Assembly: GCA_013202445.1 (NCBI GenBank)
Contig: JABMRW010000087.1
Span: 1 to 37,721, forward strand
Origin: Deltaproteobacteria bacterium
Lineage (GTDB): Bacteria; Chloroflexota; Dehalococcoidia; Dehalococcoidales; BS750m-G39
Length of the DNA stretch: 37,721 bases
Direction: 5' to 3'
In this document: positions 361 through 35,709 of the stretch, in pieces
Layout of the letters: each line of letters starts with the position of its first letter
Numbering within the stretch: the first letter of the stretch is position 1
Notes under the pieces: model-generated
Database searches by the model: none
Seen by the model: only the letters and a program-made list of their open reading frames with translations
What the model was told of the DNA's origin: nothing
Program-made: the position numbers and the translations under genes

Positions 361-1206
361 ATGTCGGCAATAAGAATAATATTAGCCCTGTCCCTGGCGC
401 TGGTGCTGTCCTTTACCCTGGTCGGTTGTAATGACAAAATCCCTCAGGACGAGATAGACCGCATCATCGAAAATGTGCTCAATGCCCAGTTTGATAGCGT
501 CAGGATGGATATGGATATGACGGCGACTGTGGAAGTAATTGGCGGGCCTGAGCCGGGTGAGATTACCATGTTTGGTGACGGCACCGGTGTTATGGACATA
601 ACTAATCAGGAAATGCGGATGACGATGAATATGACCGTAGATATACCGGAGCTGGGTGTCCAGACCATGGTCAGCAAGGTTTACCTGGTTGGAGACTGGA
701 TGTACACCGGCGTCGAGATTGCTGAATTCGGCGAGCAGTGGTTCAAGACGGAGGCGATGCCGGGCATGTGGGAGCAGCAGAGCCAGCTTGACCAGCAGAT
801 AGCCTTCCTGAAGACAGCCGTCGAGGTCAAGTCTCTACCCGACCAGGCGGTAGACGGCACCGACTGCTATGTTTTTGAGATAGTGCCCAGTGTGGAGGCG
901 TTGGGCGAGCTGCTCTCGCAGCAGAGCTCGGCTATGGGGAACATGGACTTCAGCCAGATGAACCTGGCCGACCTTTTTCAGGAAATGAAGGTCAAGGAGT
1001 GGATAGCCAGGGATAACTACCAGGTTTTGAAAACAGAGGTTTACATGCTCATGCAGATGCTCCCCGAAGATGTCGGCGCCACCGGGGCCGATTTTGATAA
1101 GATGCTCATGGGTATGAACATGACCACGAAGCTCTACGACTACAATCAGCCTGTCTCCATAAACCTGCCGGAGGCGGCGCTGAACGCTTCGGAGATGCCT
1201 TATTAG
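361..1206 (+). CDS. Putative lipoprotein, Met-rich, unknown function
   Basis: 281-aa ORF. N-terminal signal peptide ends in lipobox LVGC. Strong SD upstream. No catalytic motif recognised. Confidence 0.75.
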   Translation: MSAIRIILALSLALVLSFTLVGCNDKIPQDEIDRIIENVLNAQFDSVRMDMDMTATVEVIGGPEPGEITMFGDGTGVMDITNQEMRMTMNMTVDIPELGVQTMVSKVYLVGDWMYTGVEIAEFGEQWFKTEAMPGMWEQQSQLDQQIAFLKTAVEVKSLPDQAVDGTDCYVFEIVPSVEALGELLSQQSSAMGNMDFSQMNLADLFQEMKVKEWIARDNYQVLKTEVYMLMQMLPEDVGATGADFDKMLMGMNMTTKLYDYNQPVSINLPEAALNASEMPY

Positions 1207-19136: not shown

Positions 19137-20885
19137 ATGGCAAAGAAAGATACGGATAACTGGGAAACAGAAGAGCCGGGAAAACTTGTTGACGAATTCA
19201 AGCGCAGGCTTACCCGGGCTTTAGAAAAGGAAAGAGAGCGCCTGATCGGGGCGGCCAAGCAGCAGTCGGCGGAAATTATCCTCAACGCGCAGGAGGAAGC
19301 GGCCCAGCTTATTGAAAATGCCGTGCAGCAGGGAGAGAAGGAGGTGGAGGAGCACTCGGTCCGCATCATCACCGAAGCCGATGTCAAGGCAAAAGATATT
19401 AGGGAGGCCGCCCAAAAAGAAGCCCAGGAGGGAGCGGCCAACTACATGGTTGAGATGAGGCAGAAGGCCGACCTCATCGTGGCCGAGCTGAGAGAGAGCG
19501 CCAGAGAGGTGGTGGAGAAGCAGTCGGCGGCGGCTATCGCCAGGGCCAGGGAAGAAGCGGCGCGGATTATCAACGAGGCTGAAGATGAGGCCCGGAAACG
19601 GGCGCAGGAGGAGACCAAGCGGGAGGTAGAGTACATCACCGCTGCCGCCAGGGAGGAAGCGTCGGTAATTATTACCAGGGCGGAGCAGGAAGCGGCGGAA
19701 AAGGCAGCCGCGATGCTCGCCGAATGCGAAAAGCAGGCTCAGAAAGTCACCGCCGAGGCCATAGAAGGGGCTCAGGAGGCGGCCAAGCTGGAATTGACCA
19801 ATATTCTTAGCCGGGGGCGGGAGGAGGCGGCCCAGATTATCGAGGAAGCCAGGGAGCAGGCCAGGAAGGAAGCGGAGGGGAAAGCGGGCAGGATAATCAA
19901 TGAAGCCGAGCAGAAGGCGGAGCGGATTAACCAGGAGGCTACGGAGAGAGGACGGAAGCGGATAGATGTGGAGTCGGCCCGGGTCATTGACGAGGTAAAA
20001 TCTAAGGCGGAATGGGAGGCGGCTCAGGTTATCGCCGAAGCCAAGCAGAGGGCGTCGCAGATTATGAGCGAAGCCAGCGACTGGCTGCATGCCGAGGTCG
20101 GTAATCAGGCCAAGAAGGAAGCCCGGGACAAAGCCAGGAAAGAAGCGGAAACTATTATCGCCGAAGCTAAAGAGAAAGCTGCCGGCGTTATCGCCAGGGC
20201 GCAGCGGGATGCCGAGAGCAAGGCGGACAAGATAATCGCCAGTGCCAGGAAAGAAGCGTCCAAGGAGTCGGAGCAGCTTACCAGGCAGACCAGGGAGCAG
20301 TCGGATAAGGAAGCCGAAGCAAGGGCGGAAATGATAGTCGCCCAGGCCAGGCAGAAGGCAGAGCAGATTACCCAGGAGGCTACGGACAGAGGCCGGAGGC
20401 GGATAGAGGCGGAGTCTATACGGATTACCGCTGAGGCTAGGTCGAGGGCGGAGTGGGAAGCGGCGCGCATTATCGCCGAGGCCAAGCAGAGGGCGGTGCG
20501 GATTGTTACCGAAGCCAGCGATTGGTTAGAGGCGGAGGTCAAGACGCCGGCCAGCACTTTATCTGAACCCAGGACGGTCTACAAGAAAGCCGAACCCCAG
20601 GCTGAGAGCGCCGGTTCCGAAGGCGAAATAGGTGACGGGCTGTACCAGGGGATGATGGAGCTGGAGATACTATCCGCAGACCCCAAGCAGGTACCGGACT
20701 TCGTTTCACACTTACAGCAGGTCCCCGACCTGCAGGTGGTATCATTCAGGGGCTCGTCCAGCGGCGAAAGCATGGTGGTAGTGGTCATTAACCGCCCCCT
20801 CCCCCTGCCGGCCATTCTCAGGGAGATACCCTCGGTAGAGGAGGCAATTGGCAACGGGGGCAAGATTCAGGTAACGCTCAGGTAA
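19137..20885 (+). CDS. Large charged coiled-coil-rich protein (CCRP-1) with a conserved C-terminal globular domain; function unknown
   Basis: 582 aa with no signal peptide or TM segment. About 480 aa are Ala/Glu/Lys/Arg/Gln-rich with a recurring A-x-x-I-I-x-E-A-x-x-x-A motif. Contains a 189-nt internal duplication. The last ~85 aa are shared with 21592..23181. GGAG lies 10 nt upstream of the ATG. Confidence 0.85.
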   Translation: MAKKDTDNWETEEPGKLVDEFKRRLTRALEKERERLIGAAKQQSAEIILNAQEEAAQLIENAVQQGEKEVEEHSVRIITEADVKAKDIREAAQKEAQEGAANYMVEMRQKADLIVAELRESAREVVEKQSAAAIARAREEAARIINEAEDEARKRAQEETKREVEYITAAAREEASVIITRAEQEAAEKAAAMLAECEKQAQKVTAEAIEGAQEAAKLELTNILSRGREEAAQIIEEAREQARKEAEGKAGRIINEAEQKAERINQEATERGRKRIDVESARVIDEVKSKAEWEAAQVIAEAKQRASQIMSEASDWLHAEVGNQAKKEARDKARKEAETIIAEAKEKAAGVIARAQRDAESKADKIIASARKEASKESEQLTRQTREQSDKEAEARAEMIVAQARQKAEQITQEATDRGRRRIEAESIRITAEARSRAEWEAARIIAEAKQRAVRIVTEASDWLEAEVKTPASTLSEPRTVYKKAEPQAESAGSEGEIGDGLYQGMMELEILSADPKQVPDFVSHLQQVPDLQVVSFRGSSSGESMVVVVINRPLPLPAILREIPSVEEAIGNGGKIQVTLR

Positions 20886-21591: not shown

Positions 21592-23181
21592 ATGAAAAAT
21601 CAAAACAATGGCAAACAGGAACTAGAAGAGCTAGGCGAGGTCTTTGACCAGTTCCGGCGCAAGCTCCCCGAGCTTATCAAGCAGGAACAAACAAGGTTGA
21701 CCGAGGGAGCCAGGCAGGAATCGGCCGGCATCATTAACCGGGCCAGGGAAGAGGCGGCCGGGGTTGTTGGAACGGCCCTGGCGCAGGCCAAGAAGGAAAC
21801 AGAAGCGGAATCAGCCCGCATTATCGCCGAAGCCGAAGCCAAGGCAAAGGAAGCAGAAGCGGAATCAGCCCGCGCTATCGCCGAAGCCGAAGCCAAGGCA
21901 AAAGAGATTAATGAAACCGCCAAAGCGGAAGCCAAGGAGGAAGCCGCCGGCTATCTGGACGGAGTAAGGCAGAAAGCCGAGCTGATAGTCGAGGAGCTAA
22001 AGAACAACGCCAGGAGGGCGGCGGTGACAGAGACGGCGGCGGTGGTTACCCGGGCCAGGGAAGAGGCGGAGCAGATTATCAACCAGGCCGAGGATAGGGT
22101 TAAGAAGGAAGCTCGGGAAAAGATAAGACCGGAGATGGAACGCATTATTTCCGAAGCCAGGGAGGAGGCGGCGCTAATCGTGAACAAGGCGGAGAAGGAT
22201 GCGCAAAACAAGGCCGATAAAGCAATCGCTAAATCTCGGAAAGAGAGCGATAAGATAACTCGCGATGCGGTGGAGAAGGCGCGGAAGGAAGCCGAGGAGA
22301 TAAGCCGCTCGGCCGCCGAGATGCAAAAGCAGGCGGAGCGGGAGCTTAAGGAAGCTACAGACAAGGCCGGGAAGGAAGCGGAGGCAATTCTCAAAGAAGC
22401 CAAAGAGAAGGGCAAGAAAGAGGCGGAGGAAAAGCTGGCCGAGATAGCCGCTCAGGCCAAAGAAAAGCAAGAGCAGATTAGCCGCCAGGCCGAGCAGAAG
22501 GCAATGAAGAAGGTAGAGTCGGAGTCGGCCAAAGCCATGGCCGAAGCCAGGGCGAAGGCGGAATGGGAGGCGGCTCAGATTATAGCCGAAGCCAGAAAAA
22601 AGGCGGAGGAGATTATTTCAGAAGCCGTAAAGCGGCTGGAGAAGGAGCCCGCCCCACCGGTTATGGCCGGGGCACGTCCGGAACCCGTGGAATTTGCGCC
22701 GGCGGTAGCCAGGGCAATGCCGGAGGAAGAGTCGCTGGATAAGTTAGTCAGGGAAAGGCTGGAATTCCGGGCGCAGTTAAGGCCGGAAACCGGCGAGCCC
22801 GCCCCGCAGGCGGTGGCGACGGTGCCGGAGGTACAGCCGGCGGCTGAGGAAGCTGAGGAGAAGCCCGAACCTCAGGCCGAAGAAAAAACGGAAGCGGCTT
22901 CCAGCAACGGAGATGGCGATGGGCTTTACCGGGGGATGCTGGAGCTGGATGTAACCTCAGAGGATGCCAAGCAGATACCCGTTTTCCTGTCGCAGCTACA
23001 GCAGCTTCCCAACCTGCAGGTGGTGTCATTCAAGGGTTTACCCGGTGGCAACAGCCTGATTGTTCTGGCCATTAGCCATCCCCTGCCCCTGCCGGACATT
23101 ATCAAAAGGATGCCGCCGGTAGAGTCGGCGGTGGCTAAAGACAACGGGGTTAACGTGGTATTAAAGGCGCTTGCCTTTTGA
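21592..23181 (+). CDS. Large charged coiled-coil-rich protein (CCRP-2), paralog of 19137..20885
   Basis: 529 aa. Homologous N-terminus (VFDQFRRKL vs LVDEFKRRL), mid region (RQKAELIVEELK vs RQKADLIVAELR) and KAEWEAAQIIAEA motif. Pro/Glu-rich linker. The C-terminal domain is identical to CCRP-1 at 43 of 84 hand-aligned positions. Confidence 0.85.
   Translation: MKNQNNGKQELEELGEVFDQFRRKLPELIKQEQTRLTEGARQESAGIINRAREEAAGVVGTALAQAKKETEAESARIIAEAEAKAKEAEAESARAIAEAEAKAKEINETAKAEAKEEAAGYLDGVRQKAELIVEELKNNARRAAVTETAAVVTRAREEAEQIINQAEDRVKKEAREKIRPEMERIISEAREEAALIVNKAEKDAQNKADKAIAKSRKESDKITRDAVEKARKEAEEISRSAAEMQKQAERELKEATDKAGKEAEAILKEAKEKGKKEAEEKLAEIAAQAKEKQEQISRQAEQKAMKKVESESAKAMAEARAKAEWEAAQIIAEARKKAEEIISEAVKRLEKEPAPPVMAGARPEPVEFAPAVARAMPEEESLDKLVRERLEFRAQLRPETGEPAPQAVATVPEVQPAAEEAEEKPEPQAEEKTEAASSNGDGDGLYRGMLELDVTSEDAKQIPVFLSQLQQLPNLQVVSFKGLPGGNSLIVLAISHPLPLPDIIKRMPPVESAVAKDNGVNVVLKALAF
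21800..21907 (+). repeat. 54-nt tandem duplication (x2) inside CCRP-2
   Basis: Unit cagaagcggaatcagcccgc.. occurs at 21800-21853 and 21854-21907, differing at a handful of positions. Encodes EAESAR(I/A)IAEAEAKAKE twice. Confidence 0.9.
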
Positions 23182-26264: not shown

Positions 26265-27851
26265 TTATTCCGTCTTCATCAGGTGCAGGGTCATGACCTT
26301 CCCCATGTTGGATATTGGCTGCATCCGCTTTACCCTGAGCAATTTTGCCTGAGCCCAGACCCCGGCGGTCAGTTTCCCTGGGTGGGGAACCCGGCGTAGC
26401 TCAGCCAGCAGAGTAGCGATAACCTCGTCCTCATCCACTGTCCCGACGGTGGGGCTGATAATAAGGCTGAGGTGAGTCTGCCCCTGGCTATCCTCTTCCT
26501 CGAGTAGCTGGTAATCTGTTGCCGCACCGCCGTACTTAGCCGGCAGTACCTCCTCCAGGATGCGGACGAGGTCGGTACCAACTATGGTCATGCCGCTACC
26601 GGTCAACTTGGCGAAGCTCCTTATATCATGTATGTGGGTATTAAATCCGAGCTGCCCAAGCGAGCAATCGCAGCTCCTAGTTTCCACAACTCCATAGTCA
26701 TCGCTTTCCATATTGAGCAGTATCTTGGGCGATGACGGCAAAAGCGGGGTGAAAAGAAAGGTGTCCACGTAGGTATCGGCGTGTTCCACCTTCCTCCGGT
26801 GCTGAATTAGAGCCACAGAGTCATGGAGCAAATGGACATCATCAATGGCGCCGCCATTAGGACAACCGTAACCTATTCGGCCAATTTCACTTATGGCATA
26901 TCTGGGGATAACCGAAGCCCCGGCAGCCTCTATCTGCTGGCGCTTAGCTGGAGTCAGTGGTTCCCCACCAGAAAAAAAGCGTGTGCCCTCAATATCAAGC
27001 CCATTTTCTATAGCCGCCTGGCATACCTTGACCGCCAGGCTGACATAGCAGCTAAAAGAGCACCCCCCGAACTGCTGCTTGGTATCGGCCACCCACTGCG
27101 CTACCTTCACCGCCTCTTCTATACCCACATACTCCGGCCTGGCCAGTTTGGCTCCCCACAGCCAGCTGCCGTAGATGATATATCTCATCGCCAGCCTGTG
27201 TTGTAGTGACGACTGCACCTGCCTTTCATCCACCGGTGAAAACCACCTGGCTACAGGCTTACCTGCCTTCCAGTAGCGCAATATATTCCCGGTACCAGCT
27301 GCTGCAGGTAGTACTGGAAACCAAAGACCCATAGGTACATCAAGGGCATTATTGTCGGTAAGCACTGGTAGTTCATAGTAGCTTCTTTCTAGTTGATGTC
27401 TTAGGTCAAACGTTGTCCTCGTCCCGGCGCTTCTGGAGCCGCTGCTCTGCACCCGGTAGTAAACGTCAAGGAAGGGGTTATCAAAGTCCCTTTGCTTGAA
27501 CTGGAAATGTTCCCCCCCCCTCACCACCTCTTTCCTCCCCTTGAACTCCTCCCAGCTGATATAGACCCCATCCGCCAGCAGTTTCTGTAAGGTGGCTTCA
27601 ATCCCTTCTTTATTTACCCCGGCCTCGATGTCGCCGAATTCACAGCCGGCTACCCCGAGCAGCTTGAGAAAGGGGCTTTTTGGATTTTGATATATGCCTT
27701 TCTGCACCAGGCTCAGGAAGTTCTTTTCCCGGTCACGCAGCCGCTCGGCGAGAACCCGCTTGCTTTCCTCCAGGGTTACGGTGCCGTGGAGAAAGCCCCG
27801 CAGACCGAAGGCAAGCCGTGAGTATTTTATCAGGTCAGCAATAATTGACAT
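26265..27851 (-). CDS. Adenylate-forming enzyme of the PaaK / coenzyme F390 synthetase-like superfamily
   Basis: 528 aa. P-loop-like SSGSRSAGTRTTF. The FSGGEPLTPAKRQQIE...YAISEIGRIGYGC arrangement is typical of phenylacetate-CoA-ligase-like proteins. Family call is from memory. Confidence 0.55.
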   Translation of the reverse strand: MSIIADLIKYSRLAFGLRGFLHGTVTLEESKRVLAERLRDREKNFLSLVQKGIYQNPKSPFLKLLGVAGCEFGDIEAGVNKEGIEATLQKLLADGVYISWEEFKGRKEVVRGGEHFQFKQRDFDNPFLDVYYRVQSSGSRSAGTRTTFDLRHQLERSYYELPVLTDNNALDVPMGLWFPVLPAAAGTGNILRYWKAGKPVARWFSPVDERQVQSSLQHRLAMRYIIYGSWLWGAKLARPEYVGIEEAVKVAQWVADTKQQFGGCSFSCYVSLAVKVCQAAIENGLDIEGTRFFSGGEPLTPAKRQQIEAAGASVIPRYAISEIGRIGYGCPNGGAIDDVHLLHDSVALIQHRRKVEHADTYVDTFLFTPLLPSSPKILLNMESDDYGVVETRSCDCSLGQLGFNTHIHDIRSFAKLTGSGMTIVGTDLVRILEEVLPAKYGGAATDYQLLEEEDSQGQTHLSLIISPTVGTVDEDEVIATLLAELRRVPHPGKLTAGVWAQAKLLRVKRMQPISNMGKVMTLHLMKTE

Positions 27852-27936: not shown

Positions 27937-28635
27937 TTAAGACGAAGCCTCGATGATGATAGAAAACCTCTCTTTAAACCGCCGCAGTATGGCGATGGTC
28001 TTAGCCCCCAGCACCCCCAGGAAGACGGCGTTGCCGGCGGCGTGCAGGGTGTCGAACCAGACGGTGTTGAGCTCGGTCACCAGGAAGGTCTTGAGGGTGA
28101 GGGGATAGATAAAGGCGGTCCAGTACCAGAGGTTGGTGATCAGGCCGTAGAGGTAGCCCCAGACCACCCCGATGACGATTAAGACGGCGGTGTTCAGCTT
28201 TAATTTTCTCAAATAGCCGGCGGAAAGCCCGGCCAGACCCCAGGCAATCATCTGGTACAGCGTCCAGGGCCCGTGCCCCAGAAAGAAATTGGATACCAGC
28301 GCCGTCATGGCGCCGACGGCAAAGCCGGCGATAGGCCCGAACACATAGCCCGAGCAGATAATTATATAGGTGCAGGGCTGCACATTAGGGATAGCGGCGA
28401 AGGGCACTCTGAGCACCGCCGAGATGGTGCTGAGCATGGCCACCAGGGCAATCTCTTTGGAGCTGGTGACGGCAGTCTCGAACTCAAAGAATAGCGCCAG
28501 GCATACCAGGGCGGCCAGGACGGCGGTCAGTACCCCCCAGTTCAAGAGGTCGGCGTCTGGCCGGAGGGCGGAGACAATAAAAGCCCCGGCGGCCACGGCC
28601 ACGATGGCGATTAAAACGATATGAGATTTTTTCAC
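27937..28635 (-). CDS. ECF transporter substrate-capture (S) component, specificity unknown
   Basis: 232 aa, about 6 TM segments. The pattern ..IPNVQPCTYIIICSGYVFGPIAGFAVG..GHGPWTLYQMIAWGLAG.. is typical of ECF S components. 4-nt overlap with the ATPase gene. Confidence 0.7.
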   Translation of the reverse strand: MKKSHIVLIAIVAVAAGAFIVSALRPDADLLNWGVLTAVLAALVCLALFFEFETAVTSSKEIALVAMLSTISAVLRVPFAAIPNVQPCTYIIICSGYVFGPIAGFAVGAMTALVSNFFLGHGPWTLYQMIAWGLAGLSAGYLRKLKLNTAVLIVIGVVWGYLYGLITNLWYWTAFIYPLTLKTFLVTELNTVWFDTLHAAGNAVFLGVLGAKTIAILRRFKERFSIIIEASS

Positions 28636-30296
28636 CCTATCTGCTCTATCATCTCGTCAACGGTGAGGGTGGTATCGGCCACCCCGTAGACGCTCAGGGC
28701 TTGAGCTAAGCGGTTAATCTGCGGCGAAAAGAGCAGGGCTTTGGACAGTACCTCCCGCTTGCTCCCCTCGACCACCACCCGCCCCTCGCTGAGCAGCACC
28801 ACCCTCTCGGCGCACTCGGCGATGGTCTCGACATCGTGGCTGACCATGATGACGGTGTTGCCCCTGCGGCGGTAGTCATCGAGATAATCGACCAGCTTTT
28901 TCTTGAGCGTATAGTCCATGCCCCGCGTCGGCTCGTCGAGGACGATTACTCCGGGCTCGCCCGCCAGCACCGAGGCCAGGGCTACTCTCTGTTTCTCCCC
29001 GCCGCTCAGGTTCCGGGGGTAGCTTTTCCGGTAGCGGCTTAATTCGAACTCGTTCAGCATCCCCTCCACCGCTTTGGCGATTTGGGCTTCATCCGCCCCC
29101 CGGTTTCTCAAACTGAAGGCGATTTCGTCTTCCACGGTATCGGCAAAGAGGTGGTCGTTGGGGTTCTGGAAGACGTAGCCCACCCGCCGGCTCAACTCGG
29201 CGACGGTACTTTTTCTGGTGTCGACCCCGTCCAGCCTGACTCTGCCCTTGCTCGGCTTAAGCAGCCCGTTGAGCTGCTTGACCAGCGTCGTCTTTCCCGA
29301 AGCGTTGCGCCCCATGACGGCGATAAAGCCCCCCCGCTCTATATCCAGGTTTATATTTCTCAAGACGGCTCTCTCCCCGTAAGAGAACCAGACCTTGTCC
29401 ATATTCATTATCGGCTTTAGCCCTGCCTCCCCCTCGGTGAAGTCGGCCGTCTTCACTCCCTGCAAGACCTTCTGCAGTCTCAGCCGGGCGTCCTTGACGG
29501 TCAGGGGCAGCCCGTTCAGGGCGGCGTTATGGCTCTTCAGCTCGCGCATCAGCCGGATTACCGGCGGCAGGCCGATTCCCAGCCCGTCGGTATCGCCGCC
29601 CATCACCTCCCCCGGAGTCCCGTCGGCGGTTATTTCTCCCCCACCCATCACCAGCATCCGGTCGACCAGGTGGACGACCCGGTCCAGTCTCTGCTCGATG
29701 AGTATTACGGTTAAGCCCAGCTCGTCGTTGAGCCTTTCCAAAAGCCTTAATACTTCCTCGGCGCTCTGGGGGTCAAGCTCCGAGGTCGGCTCATCCAGAA
29801 CAAGCACTTCGGGATGAAGCGCCAGCACCGAGGCGATGGCCACCTTCTGCTGCTCGCCGCCGGACAGCTCGTTGTTGCGGGCAAAGCGCAGCCGGGCGAT
29901 GCCCACCGTGTCCAGCGCCTCCTCGATGCGCCGGGCAATCAGATTTTTGGGGTAGCCCAGGTTCTCCAGCCCGAAGGCAATCTCGCGCTCGACATCAGTC
30001 GTCACCAGCTGGTTTTCCGGGTCCTGGAAGACCATGCCCACTTTAGTCGCCAGCTCCCTGGGCGGGTGCTCCAGTATATCCATCCCCTGCACCTCGGCCT
30101 TACCGCTGATTTTGCCCCCGTAGAAGTGGGGCACCAGCCCGTTAAAGCAGCGGCACAGGGTTGACTTGCCCCCGCCCGAAGCCCCGGTGATAAGGACGAA
30201 CTGGCCGTCCTCGATGGTCAAATTTATATTTTGCAGGGCTGGTTTATCCGCCCCGTTATAGGTAAACTTTAATTCCCGGATTCTAATCAAACTCAA
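28632..30296 (-). CDS. ECF transporter fused double ATPase (EcfA-EcfA')
   Basis: 554 aa. Two Walker A motifs (GASGGGKST, GRNASGKTT) and two signature motifs (LSGGEQQ, LSGGEKQ). Confidence 0.9.
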   Translation of the reverse strand: MSLIRIRELKFTYNGADKPALQNINLTIEDGQFVLITGASGGGKSTLCRCFNGLVPHFYGGKISGKAEVQGMDILEHPPRELATKVGMVFQDPENQLVTTDVEREIAFGLENLGYPKNLIARRIEEALDTVGIARLRFARNNELSGGEQQKVAIASVLALHPEVLVLDEPTSELDPQSAEEVLRLLERLNDELGLTVILIEQRLDRVVHLVDRMLVMGGGEITADGTPGEVMGGDTDGLGIGLPPVIRLMRELKSHNAALNGLPLTVKDARLRLQKVLQGVKTADFTEGEAGLKPIMNMDKVWFSYGERAVLRNINLDIERGGFIAVMGRNASGKTTLVKQLNGLLKPSKGRVRLDGVDTRKSTVAELSRRVGYVFQNPNDHLFADTVEDEIAFSLRNRGADEAQIAKAVEGMLNEFELSRYRKSYPRNLSGGEKQRVALASVLAGEPGVIVLDEPTRGMDYTLKKKLVDYLDDYRRRGNTVIMVSHDVETIAECAERVVLLSEGRVVVEGSKREVLSKALLFSPQINRLAQALSVYGVADTTLTVDEMIEQIG

Positions 30297-31212
30297 CTCT
30301 CCTCTTGATAAAGGCCAGCGGCACTATGGCCGCCAGCAGCAGGAGCATCCCCGCCGGCATTAGCCACTCCCAGCCCCCGAATCCGATTGACATAAGGTTG
30401 GGGTAGTACTGGTAGTCGCCGTAGCCGTAGACCCGCAACATAATTCCGGCGGCCAGGGGCAGTACCCCCACCCCCAGCGTCACCGCGTCCATCTTTGAAA
30501 TATTTATATCTTTATAAAATACTCTCTTTTTGCCGGTGCCGAAGGCACGCGCCTCCATGGCCTCGGCGACCTGTACCGCCCGGTCCAGCGAGTTGGACAG
30601 CAGTGCGATAGTGATTTTACCCCGGTTCTTTAGCTTCTTAATCCAGCTTCCCGCGTCTAATTGCACCCCCCGGGTGCGGTAGCCGTCGCTGATGCGCCCC
30701 ATGTCCTCGACCAGGCAGGGGACGAAGCGCGTTGACAGCGAGGTCACCAGCACCGACTTATAGGGCAGCCTCATCTTGAGCAGGACGGCCATGATGTCGT
30801 CGGGGTGGACGGTGAGGTTGATGAGGGTAAATACCGATATTATCACCGCCAGCTTTAGGGCCATCACCGCGCCGAAGGCGATAGCCTCCAGGGTTATCAC
30901 CGGCTGGCCCGCCACCGGCAGCCGGAAGGGGGCGGTCAGCAGCACGTGGTCGCCGTGGTAGCTGAAGAGGGCGTTGATAACGATGATGCTCAAGCCCAGC
31001 CAGAGAGTAAATTTAAGCGTTGAGGCCCACTCCCGCCCCACCCCGGCCAGCTTCACCATGGGAATTATGGATAGAAACAGAATCAGGATATATACGGGGT
31101 GGTTGAAGATTAAGTTTAATACCAGCAGCCCCCCGCCCCAGGCCAGCTTGGCCAGGGGACTTAAGGCGTGGATGACGGTGTCCTTATCCCGGTAGCTCAG
31201 TGCCCGCATCAC
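30283..31212 (-). CDS. ECF transporter transmembrane (T) component (EcfT/CbiQ family)
   Basis: 309 aa polytopic protein. Conserved-looking coupling region ..RFVPCLVEDMGRISDGYRTRG.. Operon context. Confidence 0.8.
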   Translation of the reverse strand: MMRALSYRDKDTVIHALSPLAKLAWGGGLLVLNLIFNHPVYILILFLSIIPMVKLAGVGREWASTLKFTLWLGLSIIVINALFSYHGDHVLLTAPFRLPVAGQPVITLEAIAFGAVMALKLAVIISVFTLINLTVHPDDIMAVLLKMRLPYKSVLVTSLSTRFVPCLVEDMGRISDGYRTRGVQLDAGSWIKKLKNRGKITIALLSNSLDRAVQVAEAMEARAFGTGKKRVFYKDINISKMDAVTLGVGVLPLAAGIMLRVYGYGDYQYYPNLMSIGFGGWEWLMPAGMLLLLAAIVPLAFIKRRVEFD

Positions 31213-32156
31213 GGTATCTTTATTATCTCGTTATTATTGACCAGGACGGCGTAGGCATTACGCAGCCCGTCACTATTATTGATAAGCGTATCAACGGCGC
31301 TTCTTATTCCGTTCTCGTCAGTTCCAGTCACCATAAAGACGATGCTCTCCCCGGAGCCGACTCCCCCCGGGCTCCAGGGGTTCTGGGTGGCCTGGATTAG
31401 GCCCCACCCCGCCCCGTACTCCCCGGCCGGATTGCCTTTCTCGTCCAGCACCATTATTTTACCTCCCTCGCAATAAGCGAAGAACCCCAGCTTTTTGTGC
31501 AATTCGTTCAGCTCTAAAATAAGCCCGCTATCCGCCCCACCCACTATAATGAGGTGGCTCTGCTCTTTAACCCCGTCAGATAGCGTCTCAGCGCCGTTCA
31601 GGGTCACTTCAGTCACTCCCCACTCCTCTAATTTGGCCGCCAGCGCTCCGGCTTCTCCGGCGAAAGGCTCATCATAGACCACCGCCGTCGGCTTCACCTC
31701 GCCCCGCACTCTATTTAAAAAAGGCTGGGGGAAAGCCCCGACGATTGCCGGCACGAATGACCGGTAGCTCCAGTCCCTCAGGTCCCATTGCTCCACGTCG
31801 CCGTCCCGGAGGGCGTAATCTTTAGCCCCCAGGCTCAGGGAGATTCCGTTGATATAGTAAAACCAGTCCAGCTGGTTGGCCTCCTGCGAGCTTAAGCCGT
31901 TAATGGCTTTGACGAAGCCGCCGCCGTACTTGGTCTCCACCCCGGCGACTGCCTGCAATGCTTCCATGGCGTTGGTGCCGGCCTCAATCTCCAGTGTCTC
32001 GGCCAGGATTAGCTCCCTGCCGAAGTCCCGTGTCACCACCACCATCACACTGGCCTGCCCGTCTTTATCTACGTCCGCAGATTGAACGGGACAGCCGGCG
32101 CATATTGCCGTCAGCAGCAGTAAAACTAATATTAAGGGCAGCCCCCGCCTAACCAT
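31209..32156 (-). CDS. Lipoprotein with N-terminal DUF4430 (transcobalamin-like C-terminal/beta) domain
   Basis: 315 aa with lipobox ICAGC. The DUF4430 pattern is VMVVVTRDFG...GTNAMEALQAV...GGFVKAINGL...WFYYINGISLSLGAKDYALRDGDVEQW (about nt 31752-32051). Confidence 0.75.
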   Translation of the reverse strand: MVRRGLPLILVLLLLTAICAGCPVQSADVDKDGQASVMVVVTRDFGRELILAETLEIEAGTNAMEALQAVAGVETKYGGGFVKAINGLSSQEANQLDWFYYINGISLSLGAKDYALRDGDVEQWDLRDWSYRSFVPAIVGAFPQPFLNRVRGEVKPTAVVYDEPFAGEAGALAAKLEEWGVTEVTLNGAETLSDGVKEQSHLIIVGGADSGLILELNELHKKLGFFAYCEGGKIMVLDEKGNPAGEYGAGWGLIQATQNPWSPGGVGSGESIVFMVTGTDENGIRSAVDTLINNSDGLRNAYAVLVNNNEIIKIP

Positions 32157-32667
32157 AGCGTGCCCTGGCTATCAGCCTCACTATTATCACTATAATCAAC
32201 ACCAGCAGCGCGGCGGCGCTGGCAATCCACCACTGCAGGGCCATGATGGGGAACTCGGTCACCTGCACGTGGGCGGGCACTTTCACGCCGGCGCCGATGC
32301 GCAGCTCGGCCTCCGGGGGCAGGCAGAGGATGCACATGTCGAAGTCGTGGTCACCGGCAGCGGTGAACAGCGATGGGGCCACGGCAATCTCTACCCCCCG
32401 CACCTCCCCGGCGTTCAGGGTGAACTCGGCCGGGGTGATTTCAAACCAGCCCTCGTTGCCGCCCTCTACGTAGACCTGAAACTGGGAGGCCTGGTCGGAC
32501 TGGTTGATAATATTCAGGGTCTGCACCTCGGTGCCGCCGGGTCGGACCTCGAAGTCCATCCTGCCCGGGGCCACGCCCACGCTCAGCGCCAGCGCCGACG
32601 CCGCCGCCAGCACCAGGCCGATAATCGGCAGCAGGACTACGGATGCTTTTGCCAGTTTACCCGTCAT
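32149..32667 (-). CDS. Bitopic membrane-anchored beta-sandwich-like protein
   Basis: 172 aa. N-terminal signal/anchor and C-terminal TM segment (WWIASAAALLVLIIVIIV). The central region resembles the C-terminal domain of the 667-aa protein. Confidence 0.6.
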   Translation of the reverse strand: MTGKLAKASVVLLPIIGLVLAAASALALSVGVAPGRMDFEVRPGGTEVQTLNIINQSDQASQFQVYVEGGNEGWFEITPAEFTLNAGEVRGVEIAVAPSLFTAAGDHDFDMCILCLPPEAELRIGAGVKVPAHVQVTEFPIMALQWWIASAAALLVLIIVIIVRLIARARYG

Positions 32668-32676
32668 AGCTCACTT

Positions 32677-34680
32677 CTAGTAGGGAGACTCCGACGCCCA
32701 GAAGATGATGGTGCCGTTCTGGTTGCCGGTAAGGGTATAGGTTTCGGGAACGGTAAGGGTGACTACGTATTCCTCCGAGTCGTCCCTGGAGACGGTGCCG
32801 TCGAACTCGTTCCATTTCAGGCTGTTTAGCTTGAGCCCGTCGACATAGAGGTTTTCGGCGTCATCGCTGACCATGGTGGTGACGGCCAGCCTCCAGGCGC
32901 CCAGGTTGGTCACGGTGATGGTCACCGGTGGGCTGACGTCCCTCGGCCCCAGCACGCCGAAGTTGATGTAGTCGGGGCTGACCGAAAAACTTATGGCGGG
33001 GATGATATCAACCGTCATGTTGACGTTCTGGCCTTCTGATTGCTGGGAGCTGCCCTCGCCGACGACCACGGTGACCGGGTTGCTGCGGATGTAGCCGTCC
33101 TTCTCGGCGTAGACCTCGATGGTAGCGTTGTTATAGATGGTAATGTCCACCTCGCCGTTCTCATCTGTGGTGTAACTGGTGTCGGCGTAGACGGTGGCGT
33201 TTTCAATTAAATACCACTCGGCGAAGGCATCGTCGTACTCGCTCACGGTGACGGTAAAGCTGTCACCGGCGCCCGGCGCGGCATTGTCCACCTCCACTTT
33301 GAGTGGTATATCGTCCCACTCGCCGTAGTAGAAGAGCACTTCCTGGTGCGGCGGGTCGGGTGGAGATGTCTCGTCGAGGATAAAGTCGGCGGCGCCGACC
33401 GAGGGGCTGATGTAATCGATGCGGTACAGCCAGCCGGCCATGCCCTCCCCCTCCTCGCCGTCTATCGAGGTAACGAAAAGGCCGCCCCACTCATCGGTGG
33501 TCTCGTAGGGGAATTCGCCCTCTTCGGCGGCTTCGTCCAGTGCCCCCAGGGCGGTGGGGTCTTCCAGGTGATACTCAATACTGCTGTTGTCGGCGGTAAT
33601 CCAGGACTCGTCAACGGTGACGCTGTCGTCCCAGATGTTATCATTCTCCCCCTCGATGCGGATATCGACGGTGACCCCCTCCTCCGGCGGCTCCGGCTCC
33701 AGCACCGCTACCGGGAAGTAGTCGCCCAGCAGGGCGATGATAGCGGCGGCGGTGGTGCCGGCGGGGCTCATCCCCGGGGTTTCGTCCTGCCAGTAGAAGG
33801 CGCCGTAATCGTCGCCCGTCTGTTGGAAGGTGAGCAGGTCGTCAACCGGGTCATTGCCCGTTCCACTGTCCCAGTCGGTGGGGACTTCACCGGCGGCGGT
33901 TATACCGCAGATGCCCCAGGAATCGGTGTCGGCGTTGGTGTCCCCCCAGGACAGGAAACCGCCGTTGTCCTGCTGGGTGGTCTTCATATAGTCCAGCCCG
34001 TCGCTTATAGCCGCTGAGCCTGGGGACTGACCGGCGGCAATCAGGGCCATGATGGCGGCGGCGGTATTGTCAACATCGCTGTATCCCCCTCCCACTCCCC
34101 AGCCCCAGCCGTCGTCAACGGCGTCCTGGTTGGCTAAAATAAAAGCCACGCTGTCCTGGATAATGGTCGAGGTGGCCGGGTCTTTGCCGGCGGCCACCAG
34201 CGCCAGGACGCCCCAGAAGTCGTCGTTCAGAGTGGCGCCGTCGCCAATCTGGTTGCCGGTGTGGGTGGCTTCAAGCAGGGCCACGAAGTCCCGGCCCCCG
34301 AAGTCGGTCGGGTCTTCACCGGCGGCAACGGCAGCCAGTATCATCTTTGAGTAGGCGTTGGCCGCCGTGGCGGTGGCGGCGTTAGCCGCCAGGTAGTCGA
34401 CTATGGATGGGTTGGACGGGTCGTCCTTCCACTCGCCGGGGTCTTCACCGGCGGCGGCGATGGCCATCACCACCCAGGCCGAGGCGCTGAAGCTCTCGAT
34501 TTTGCCGGTGTTGTCCTGCACTGAGCGCAGGTAGTTCAAGGCGTCGCTGACTACGGCATCGGTAGCGGAGTAGGGGTAATCCTCCTCCACCGCCATTACC
34601 GGAGTAATCAGCAGGCAGGGCAGGAGCAGGACGGATATCAGCAGCAGGGTGACTAAACGGGAACTAAAAATCTTGGCCAT
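32677..34680 (-). CDS. Secreted multidomain protein: prenyltransferase/terpene-cyclase-like alpha/alpha toroid + DUF4430 + Ig-like/beta-sandwich domains (transcobalamin-like architecture)
   Basis: 667 aa with signal peptide ..ITPVMA. Five AAG(E/K/Q)xP repeats (AAAGEDPGEW, VAAGEDPTDF, VAAGKDPATS, IAAGQSPGSA, TAAGEVPTDW) within residues ~40-320. DUF4430 pattern at residues ~335-455 (…GLFVTSIDGEEGEGMAGWLYRIDY…). Confidence 0.75.
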   Translation of the reverse strand: MAKIFSSRLVTLLLISVLLLPCLLITPVMAVEEDYPYSATDAVVSDALNYLRSVQDNTGKIESFSASAWVVMAIAAAGEDPGEWKDDPSNPSIVDYLAANAATATAANAYSKMILAAVAAGEDPTDFGGRDFVALLEATHTGNQIGDGATLNDDFWGVLALVAAGKDPATSTIIQDSVAFILANQDAVDDGWGWGVGGGYSDVDNTAAAIMALIAAGQSPGSAAISDGLDYMKTTQQDNGGFLSWGDTNADTDSWGICGITAAGEVPTDWDSGTGNDPVDDLLTFQQTGDDYGAFYWQDETPGMSPAGTTAAAIIALLGDYFPVAVLEPEPPEEGVTVDIRIEGENDNIWDDSVTVDESWITADNSSIEYHLEDPTALGALDEAAEEGEFPYETTDEWGGLFVTSIDGEEGEGMAGWLYRIDYISPSVGAADFILDETSPPDPPHQEVLFYYGEWDDIPLKVEVDNAAPGAGDSFTVTVSEYDDAFAEWYLIENATVYADTSYTTDENGEVDITIYNNATIEVYAEKDGYIRSNPVTVVVGEGSSQQSEGQNVNMTVDIIPAISFSVSPDYINFGVLGPRDVSPPVTITVTNLGAWRLAVTTMVSDDAENLYVDGLKLNSLKWNEFDGTVSRDDSEEYVVTLTVPETYTLTGNQNGTIIFWASESPY

Positions 34681-34739
34681 CGGACGCCTCCTCTAAGGTA
34701 ATTAAAGCGGGCTTGATAATATACAAGTACAGTTGTTTG

Positions 34740-34768
34740 ATTATAGAGGCAAAAGGGGCTCCTGTCAA
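34740..34768 (-). promoter_or_regulatory. Consensus sigma70-type promoter TTGACA-17 nt-TATAAT driving the 7-gene operon
   Basis: The minus strand reads cccTTGACAggagccccttttgcctcTATAATcaaac. -35 at 34763-34768, -10 at 34740-34745. SD ggagg lies before ATG 34680. Confidence 0.7.
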
Positions 34769-35590: not shown

Positions 35591-35597
35591 AGTTTAC

Positions 35598-35660
35598 TCC
35601 GATTGAGGCACAGTTCACCCCGATTGAGGCACAATTCACTCCGATTGATGTTTAGTCAAC
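35598..35660. promoter_or_regulatory. Three tandem 21-nt direct repeats (iteron/operator-like) in the regulator leader
   Basis: tccgattgaggcacagttcac (35598-35618), cccgattgaggcacaattcac (35619-35639) and a degenerate tccgattgatgtttagtcaac (35640-35660). They sit directly upstream of start codon 35590. Confidence 0.7.
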
Positions 35661-35669
35661 TACACTTGA

Positions 35670-35697
35670 ATTATAGCACTTATTTGGGGGAAAGCAA
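35670..35697 (-). promoter_or_regulatory. Candidate promoter TTGCTT-16 nt-(TGC)TATAAT for the regulator gene
   Basis: The minus strand reads ttgctttcccccaaataagtgctataat. It lies upstream of the iterons. Confidence 0.45.
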
Positions 35698-35709
35698 GGG
35701 GGGAATTGA

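Follow-up and report, generated by a model that had tools for sequence, protein, structure and literature searches.

Introduction

Secreted bacterial proteins in which an SLBB domain is fused to an alpha/alpha toroid, placed N- or C-terminally, were described by Burroughs, Balaji, Iyer and Aravind in 2007 (PMC1796856). Some of them are also fused to immunoglobulin (Ig) domains, and the transcobalamin-like SLBB clade is defined by a beta-hairpin that follows the helix of the domain (PMC1796856). The operons that encode such proteins recur across phyla and contain CbiO-like and CbiQ-like genes and, in many cases, another paralogous SLBB protein, and their hosts usually lack key enzymes of B12 biosynthesis (PMC1796856). 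The authors predicted that these systems scavenge B12 or its precursors, allowed for "a distinct metabolite" as the target in some hosts, and proposed that animal transcobalamin was acquired from Gram-positive bacteria (PMC1796856). Their work was purely computational, did not cover Dehalococcoidia and did not identify the S component of the transporter. Here we describe an operon of this kind on contig JABMRW010000087.1, whose whole analysed stretch of 37,721 nucleotides is called the window below. The operon occupies positions 27937-34680 on the minus strand and joins transcobalamin-shaped surface proteins to a dedicated energy-coupling factor (ECF) importer.

Two systems with experimental data come close to it. 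The S component CbrT of Lactobacillus delbrueckii binds cobalamin (Cbl) and cobinamide (Cbi) with nM affinity, ECF-CbrT transports both compounds, and hemin failed to compete for CbrT at 250-fold excess (PMC5997447). The same paper named a nrdJ-cbrS-cbrT-pduO cluster without describing CbrS. In Lactobacillus sakei, the genes lsa1836-1840 encode in this order a transcobalamin alpha-like protein, a transcobalamin beta-like protein, EcfT, a fused AA' ATPase and a 230-aa S component (bioRxiv 10.1101/864751). Deletion of this operon cut the accumulation of 57Fe-hemin 5- to 8-fold, with effects at heme concentrations of at least 5 uM, and complementation from a plasmid restored or raised it (bioRxiv 10.1101/864751). 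The operon was assigned to heme uptake through extracellular capture followed by ECF import; B12 and ligand binding were not part of that study (bioRxiv 10.1101/864751).

A literature search for cobalamin ECF transport in Dehalococcoidia returned nothing, and direct proof of corrinoid binding by any bacterial transcobalamin-like protein was not found in the searchable literature. Among corrinoid auxotrophs, Dehalococcoides and its relatives are classic examples. Anaerobic communities are shaped by the exchange of cobamides, for which Dehalococcoidia are typical scavengers. The operon bears on the question of how corrinoids are captured at the surface of monoderm-like bacteria without BtuB or BtuG.

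Results

A conserved operon joins surface proteins to an ECF importer

The list of open reading frames (ORFs) places six genes and five junctions in the operon (Table 1). They encode, in order, a 667-aa secreted protein, a 172-aa protein, a 315-aa protein, EcfT, a fused EcfA-A' ATPase and an S component. The first two genes are separated by a 9-nt gap (32668-32676) and the following junctions are overlaps of 8, 4, 14 and 4 nt. A first-pass annotation of this DNA had given these same junction sizes, which the ORF coordinates bear out, and had spoken of a seven-gene operon with six junctions; that count was one too high, and its own list contained six genes. A conserved seventh gene does lie upstream, outside this span. 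It encodes a regulator with a winged helix-turn-helix (wHTH) and a DUF7839 domain and is separated from the gene of the 667-aa protein by a 127-nt gap that holds a full promoter.

To see how widely this arrangement is kept, we compared 37 related loci from species-representative genomes, named L001 onward. The order regulator-667-172-315-EcfT-EcfAA'-S recurs in about 23 of the 37, down to ~50% identity. Because gene order is kept in this proportion of loci, the arrangement is real and not due to chance: it is a conserved operon of Dehalococcoidia-type bacteria that joins transcobalamin-shaped surface proteins to a dedicated ECF importer. Labels of Dehalococcoidia, Dehalococcoidales, Dehalococcoidaceae or Chloroflexota are carried by 33 of the loci; the four exceptions are a "Deltaproteobacteria" metagenome-assembled genome (MAG), L001, and a Thermoplasmata archaeon, a Levyibacteriota bacterium and a Woesearchaeota archaeon, all three distant and matching in the toroid only. 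The present contig and L001 are both labelled "Deltaproteobacteria bacterium" at NCBI, and there is extended synteny with the Dehalococcoidales MAG L026; the label may be wrong.

Two kinds of departure from the common order were observed. In L003 (9944-12528) and L007 (10001-12471), the genes of the 667-aa and 172-aa proteins stay paired and no ECF genes were detected downstream; in L003 the ORFs that follow the pair are on the opposite strand. The two may form a functional unit separable from the transporter. In L029-L033 (for example L033, 10001-13040), the toroid half of the 667-aa protein alone finds a match, about 2 kb of other coding sequence precede the homologue of the 315-aa protein, and no homologue of the 172-aa protein was detected. 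The capture protein seems to have a variant architecture in these loci.

The 667-aa protein has the two-lobed layout of transcobalamin

Pfam searches detected DUF4430 (PF14478) at residues 376-437 of the 667-aa protein (27 bits, cut-off 23.8) and at residues 60-126 of the 315-aa protein (52 bits), so that the DUF4430 assignment of the first-pass annotation stands for both. Its claim of an alpha/alpha toroid in the 667-aa protein fared less evenly. For the single sequence, SQHop_cyclase_C remains under its cut-off (22.2 bits against 26.1). The toroid becomes clear with a 57-sequence family profile, which matches squalene-hopene cyclase with E 2e-16, and the five AAG..P repeats, at residues 76, 119, 163, 215 and 262, are real. 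Against transcobalamin (TC), the same profile aligned in the beta domain alone (E 0.05-0.8).

The structural comparison was more informative. The AlphaFold2 (AF2) model of the 667-aa protein (mean predicted local distance difference test, pLDDT, 87.6; predicted template modelling score, pTM, 0.51) consists of a helical toroid, a beta-grasp domain and two beta-sandwiches. When this model was searched against the PDB with Foldseek, the top 15 matches were all TC, intrinsic factor (IF) or haptocorrin (HC), with E values from 6e-12 to 2e-10 and alignments of 448-479 columns that span both lobes; terpene cyclases and prenyltransferases ranked below them, at ~1e-6. The two-lobed transcobalamin layout that had been proposed from the sequence is thus borne out by the fold. 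Identity to the eukaryotic proteins is just 12-16%. In both groups an alpha6/alpha6 toroid is followed by a beta-grasp domain in one chain and the DUF4430 domain is shared, whereas the bacterial protein differs in having two extra Ig-like domains, a cyclase-like toroid, a DxDDTA-type motif and, in the model, lobes whose orientation does not superpose on holo-TC. According to the model, fold and domain order match those of transcobalamin, and the lobe orientation of the apo form does not reproduce the closed holo clamp.

We then searched for relatives of residues 34-440, which cover the toroid and the SLBB domain. Counted among 50%-identity representatives, there were 3819 relatives at E <= 1e-3 and 321 at E <= 1e-30, and alignments covered both lobes for roughly one in three of the best 150, so that the fusion is widespread. 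One distant fused representative is from a Diapherotrites archaeon.

The SLBB domains of both surface proteins show the hairpin that marks the transcobalamin-like clade. DSSP assignment of the models gave helix 377-388 followed by strands 392-395 and 402-406 in the 667-aa protein, and helix 63-70 followed by strands 73-76 and 81-85 in the 315-aa protein. Both proteins also carry a secretion signal and PF14478, and the operon context of the clade, that is, CbiO-like and CbiQ-like genes and a second paralogous SLBB protein, is present here.

A probable lipoprotein and a putative membrane anchor complete the surface proteins

The 315-aa protein is made of two domains, an SLBB/DUF4430 domain at about residues 35-128 and a flavodoxin-like alpha/beta domain at about residues 150-315. 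Cys22 is invariant in its family and lies in a lipobox of the L-x-G-C type, which reads C-A-G-C in the window copy; from this sequence feature, the protein is probably a lipoprotein. Neither the protein nor its family profile gave a useful match among PDB sequences. Its AF2 model (pLDDT 84.7, pTM 0.82) was more telling: Foldseek matched the SLBB domain to 3U7Z and to the beta domain of IF and HC, and the flavodoxin-like domain to its counterpart in BcsB.

The 172-aa protein has an N-terminal hydrophobic signal and a C-terminal transmembrane helix with a basic tail. The beta-sandwich ascribed to it rests on sub-threshold Ig/ASH-like matches (Cep192_D6, ASH, BatD and choice-of-anchor T), and neither BLASTP nor hhalign found homology between this protein and the Ig domains of the 667-aa protein. 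The 172-aa protein may be a membrane tether for the 667-aa protein, with whose gene its own gene stays paired even in L003 and L007.

The S component groups with the cobalamin transporter CbrT

The transporter genes form a dedicated module. EcfT matches Pfam CbiQ (80.5 bits), and the 554-aa protein contains two ABC_tran domains and exceeds the cut-offs of TIGR04520 (472 bits) and TIGR04521 (453 bits), the generic ECF models, which are its best NCBIfam matches. A T component, two EcfA-type domains and an S component are encoded contiguously by overlapping genes, as in group I ECF transporters.

The S component belongs to the ECF family PF12822 (52 bits). Its sole strong match among PDB sequences was CbrT (6FNP_A, E 9e-11); the next were 4HZU_S (0.02) and FolT (1.3), and no BtuM chain was among the matches at E <= 10, for which reason a BtuM assignment was rejected. 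BLASTP aligned the S component to CbrT with 32% identity, and the S components of all related loci share 25-36% identity with it. Since CbrT homologues span 25-60% identity according to the authors of the ECF-CbrT study (PMC5997447), the S component falls within their range. Four motifs, IPNVQPxT, SNxFLGxGxWTLxQ, FDxxHAxGN and RFK, are invariant in CbrT and the Dehalococcoidia proteins. The comparison with the CbrT and BtuM families that the first-pass annotation had proposed therefore groups the S component with CbrT, and with no family of proven non-corrinoid specificity.

Relative to CbrT, the S component carries a conserved N-terminal extension of ~55 aa with two extra hydrophobic segments. 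CbrT of L. delbrueckii (182 aa) also uses a shared group II ECF module, whereas the operon described here encodes a dedicated group I module with fused ATPases. Both transporters combine homologous S components with EcfT and two ATPase domains. Two cysteines of the S component, Cys88 and Cys94, are near-invariant and lie in NVQPCTY and IICSGY, where CbrT has Val and Thr. In BtuM, a cysteine serves as cobalt ligand.

We next examined the surroundings of cbrT on L. delbrueckii-type contigs from metagenomes, whose cbrT is 98-100% identical to 6FNP_A. In these contigs cbrS (L043, 5553-5969; also L049, 5586-5969) encodes a secreted DUF4430 protein of 138 aa (73.6 bits, E 1.7e-20) and lies 2 nt upstream of cbrT, between nrdJ and pduO. 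The flanking genes encode a B12-dependent ribonucleotide reductase (NrdJ) and a cobalamin adenosyltransferase (PduO). DUF4430 is tied in this way to the locus of a proven B12 transporter. CbrS can also be aligned to the N-terminal domain of the 315-aa protein (27% identity, E 5e-7). Both loci encode a secreted DUF4430 protein beside the S component, namely CbrS in L. delbrueckii and, here, the 315-aa lipoprotein candidate together with the SLBB domain of the 667-aa protein. They differ in that the nrdJ-cbrS-cbrT-pduO cluster contains no toroid protein, and the present operon has no adjacent B12-enzyme genes.

The operon has its own promoter and a double-palindrome operator candidate

The six-gene operon is preceded by a sigma-70-type promoter that is the sole 12/12 match to TTGACA-N17-TATAAT in 27.5-36 kb. 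Right after its -10 box lies an operator-like element of two adjacent palindromes (CAAGTnnACTTG type), ~20 nt apart from centre to centre, and the ACTTG-N8-CAAG core occurs in the window at this site only. Promoter and double palindrome are kept at the equivalent site in 18 of 19 related loci examined (L001, L002, L005, L006, L008-L013, L016, L017, L019, L020, L022, L023, L026 and L028); the promoter of the relatives reads TTGACA-N17/18-TATAAT, with TACAAT as the -10 box in L022. A subclade formed by L013, L016 and L017 bears a different palindrome, GGATTATAATCC, and this suggests that the operator co-evolved with the adjoining wHTH-DUF7839 regulator.

The regulator combines an N-terminal winged HTH of MarR/ArsR-like type (HTH_24/MarR_2) with a C-terminal DUF7839 domain (82 bits, Pfam). 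Against PDB sequences it gave weak HTH matches (ScaR, E 0.04) and none for DUF7839. In 24 of the 37 related loci, its gene directly precedes that of the 667-aa homologue and shares its strand. The wHTH-DUF7839 protein probably represses the six-gene operon through the double palindrome.

Upstream of the regulator gene (35591-35709, minus strand), another promoter-like sequence, TTGCTT-N17-TATAAT, precedes a TCAAGTGTAGTTGA palindrome. After this palindrome, three tandem repeats of ~21 nt (TCAATCGGRGTGAAYTGTGCC) reach the start codon of the regulator within the same interval. The regulator gene may be autoregulated through the TCAAGTGTAGTTGA palindrome site.

Discussion

A probable corrinoid importer with a proposed extracellular capture arm

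A corrinoid substrate is favoured because the S component and the SLBB accessory protein both have counterparts that adjoin each other in a proven B12 locus. We regard the side-by-side position of CbrS and CbrT in that locus as the strongest indirect argument for such a substrate here. Further arguments are the corrinoid binding of CbrT itself, the first rank of the eukaryotic B12 carriers among the fold matches of the 667-aa model, the clade-defining hairpin of both SLBB domains, the conserved gene order, the usual lack of B12 biosynthesis in hosts of such SLBB proteins (PMC1796856) and the corrinoid auxotrophy of Dehalococcoides and its relatives. On balance it seems rather likely that the operon encodes a dedicated (group I) ECF-CbrT-type importer of corrinoids, that is, of cobalamin, cobinamide or other cobamides, with an extracellular transcobalamin-like capture arm. 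The 667-aa protein would bind the corrinoid at the cell surface in a clamp formed by the toroid and the SLBB beta-grasp domain of a single chain, while its two C-terminal Ig-like domains would keep it attached to the envelope, with the membrane-anchored 172-aa protein as a possible link. At the membrane, the 315-aa lipoprotein would receive the ligand, or present it to the CbrT-like S component, by means of its CbrS-like SLBB domain. The S component would then topple against EcfT, powered by ATP hydrolysis in the fused EcfA-A'. The six genes would be expressed from their own sigma-70 promoter, with the double palindrome, which overlaps the presumed start site, probably bound by the wHTH-DUF7839 protein in place of control by a B12 riboswitch. 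The first-pass annotation had said that substrate identity was a matter of inference; this still holds, and we likewise infer the order of hand-off, the tethering and the role of the repressor.

Several observations weigh against a corrinoid capture relay. Superposed as a whole chain on holo-TC, the model of the 667-aa protein gave an rmsd (root-mean-square deviation) of ~24 A and TM (template modelling) scores of 0.38-0.50 on the target. Pfam Cobalamin_bind did not match the protein at E <= 0.01, and by sequence its toroid is nearer to terpene cyclases than to TC. ECF-CbrT works in E. coli and in proteoliposomes without an accessory protein (PMC5997447). The sole homologous operon that was tested genetically as a whole, that of L. 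sakei, affected heme accumulation, B12 being untested there. A genomic link to B12 metabolism (riboswitch, B12 enzymes or salvage genes) was not found here either. The cluster had been suggested to lie downstream of cobalamin riboswitches in relatives, and Rfam searches found none in the window, in 20 related loci or in 3 Lactobacillus loci at gathering thresholds, a threshold of E <= 10 being applied to 34.5-36.5 kb; no Rfam family of any kind was found in the window and the 20 related loci. No B12-dependent or B12-salvage genes are present in the window, whose other genes are TCA (tricarboxylic acid), folate and Tct genes, or within 10 kb in relatives, where searches for NrdJ and PduO were negative.

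A related tetrapyrrole could be the ligand of the same machinery

The absence of a B12 riboswitch and of B12 genes near the operon speaks for an alternative in which the same machinery imports another tetrapyrrole, such as heme or a porphyrinoid precursor, as proposed for L. sakei lsa1836-1840. We consider this unlikely, but it is the alternative that best survives the comparison. By description, the L. sakei operon matches in the order of its components, in the fusion of A and A' and in the length of the S component (~230 aa), and its deletion and complementation changed hemin accumulation as given above; the "distinct metabolite" allowed for some hosts in 2007 points in the same direction. 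The resemblance is incomplete, in that the alpha and beta lobes of L. sakei are separate proteins, whereas here they are fused in one chain with Ig domains and a 172-aa gene is added. What argues for a corrinoid instead is that the closest characterised relative of the S component is CbrT, with its nM affinity for Cbl and Cbi and its indifference to excess hemin, and that the CbrS-CbrT pair sits in a B12 locus. The L. sakei study, for its part, contains no binding data and no B12, and its effects appeared only at 5 uM heme or more. To our knowledge, cultured Dehalococcoides need corrinoids and have neither cytochromes nor heme synthesis.

The surface proteins could act independently of the transporter

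Because ECF-CbrT needs no accessory protein, a capture relay is not required in principle, and the extracellular proteins might instead serve surface or S-layer-associated storage, sequestration or an unrelated envelope role while being co-transcribed with a self-sufficient ECF transporter. The pairs of 667-aa and 172-aa genes in L003 and L007, where no ECF genes were detected downstream, are in line with such an arrangement, as are the low interdomain confidence of the 667-aa model expressed in its pTM and the lack of detectable homology linking the 172-aa protein to the Ig domains. However, the six genes keep their order, with overlapping stop and start codons, in about 23 genomes down to ~50% identity, SLBB proteins recur with CbiO/CbiQ-like genes across phyla (PMC1796856), and a second SLBB protein, probably lipid-anchored, is encoded beside the transporter genes. 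Altogether we find this explanation improbable.

The toroid is very unlikely to be an active terpene cyclase

The likeness of the toroid to terpene cyclases raises the question whether it is a cyclase or prenyl-binding module that handles an isoprenoid-type ligand or carries out extracellular cyclisation. Besides the match of the family profile to squalene-hopene cyclases, a motif SDVDDTA is near-invariant in the 57-sequence family alignment (D202 in 57/57, D204 in 55/57 and D205 in 54/57 sequences). It is identical to the catalytic DxDDTA motif found in class II terpene cyclases and lines up with DVDDT in drimenyl diphosphate synthase, and the database annotation of one relative reads "terpene cyclase/mutase family protein". 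In class II cyclases, however, DxDDTA lies in a beta-gamma didomain, whereas the window protein has DVDNTA at residues 202-207 (34063-34083 covers residues 200-206), a single toroid and a signal peptide. The toroid is moreover fused to an SLBB domain as in TC, IF and HC, which outscore the cyclases by five orders of magnitude in Foldseek, and the partner S component is CbrT-like. We therefore give a cyclase function very little weight.

A cobalt or nickel transporter of the CbiMNQO/NikMNQO type, a reading that the CbiQ match of EcfT and the several NCBIfam "cobalt transporter ATP-binding subunit" models that also match the ATPase might suggest, was rejected as extremely improbable, since no CbiM/CbiN or NikM/NikN was matched, the S component is a CbrT-like PF12822 protein, EcfT scores 59 bits against the cut-off of 112 of the CbiQ equivalog TIGR02454, and the ATPase is matched best by generic ECF models.

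A possible prokaryotic counterpart of transcobalamin

Returning to the corrinoid importer, a more specific version of it can be proposed, tentatively and with clearly less assurance. The 667-aa protein might be a prokaryotic "transcobalamin", a secreted, single-chain cobamide clamp of high affinity that passes its ligand to the CbrS-like lipoprotein and from there to the CbrT-type S component. Its conserved acidic DxDDTA-type motif would be a feature of terpene cyclases turned to ligand binding, and the wHTH-DUF7839 protein would repress the operon in response to corrinoids, in place of the usual riboswitch. If true, this would add an extracellular capture arm of three steps to ECF transporters, whose class is defined by the lack of a soluble binding protein, and would provide a tractable, ancestor-like model for the animal B12 carriers.

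The first-pass annotation had stated that no such relay had been characterised experimentally. This was too strong, given that the concept was published in 2007 and that the L. sakei member of the group has genetic data. The concept is already known, and the cluster does not overturn current views. As local variations it shows the fusion of alpha, beta and Ig parts in one chain, the 172-aa anchor, the flavodoxin-like domain, the extension of the S component and control by a protein instead of a riboswitch; the 172-aa anchor protein, the flavodoxin-like domain and the regulator with its operator are absent from the description of Burroughs and colleagues (PMC1796856). The cluster is compact and well conserved, both modelled proteins fold with good confidence, and the promoter-operator pair is clean. 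It is suited to three questions: whether such systems import corrinoids or heme, whether ECF transporters use extracellular binding proteins, and whether the animal B12 carriers have a bacterial origin.

Table 1. Genes, protein domains and regulatory elements of the operon, with positions in the window (genes and DNA elements) or in the protein (residues)
Feature	Position	Strand	Basis or remark
Gene of wHTH+DUF7839 regulator, 260 aa	35590..34808	-	conserved seventh gene, outside 27937-34680
Sigma-70-type promoter TTGACA-N17-TATAAT	34740..34768	-	six-gene operon
Operator-like element, two adjacent palindromes (CAAnnnnACTTG, 8 nt, CAAGnnnnCTTT)	34700..34739	-	right after -10 box
Gene of 667-aa protein	34680..32677	-	ORF list
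Gene of 172-aa protein	32667..32149	-	ORF list
Gene of 315-aa protein	32156..31209	-	ORF list
Gene of EcfT, 309 aa	31212..30283	-	ORF list
Gene of fused EcfA-A' ATPase, 554 aa	30296..28632	-	ORF list
Gene of S component, 232 aa	28635..27937	-	ORF list
667-aa protein, signal peptide	~residues 1-30		
667-aa protein, alpha/alpha toroid	~residues 36-320		AF2 model; five AAG..P repeats
667-aa protein, SLBB/DUF4430 beta-grasp	~residues 335-440		Pfam and AF2 model
667-aa protein, two Ig-like beta-sandwich domains	~residues 447-541, 558-667		AF2 model

Other features of the window

An ORF of 528 aa (26265-27851, minus strand) starts 85 nt downstream of the S component gene on the same strand. It has no Pfam match, and a weak BagE/FevW-like match was the only one obtained. 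Only L026, the closest syntenic locus, keeps it at that position, so that it probably does not belong to the cluster.

Elsewhere in the window, two paralogous proteins of 582 and 529 aa, rich in Glu, Ala and Lys, are encoded on the plus strand (19137-20885 and 21592-23181). They gave no informative Pfam match and are probably coiled-coil proteins. The strong purine skew at 19-23 kb is due to these two Glu/Ala/Lys-rich genes, whose products share a C-terminal domain of ~70 aa (GDGLYxGMxELE...VVSFxG...).

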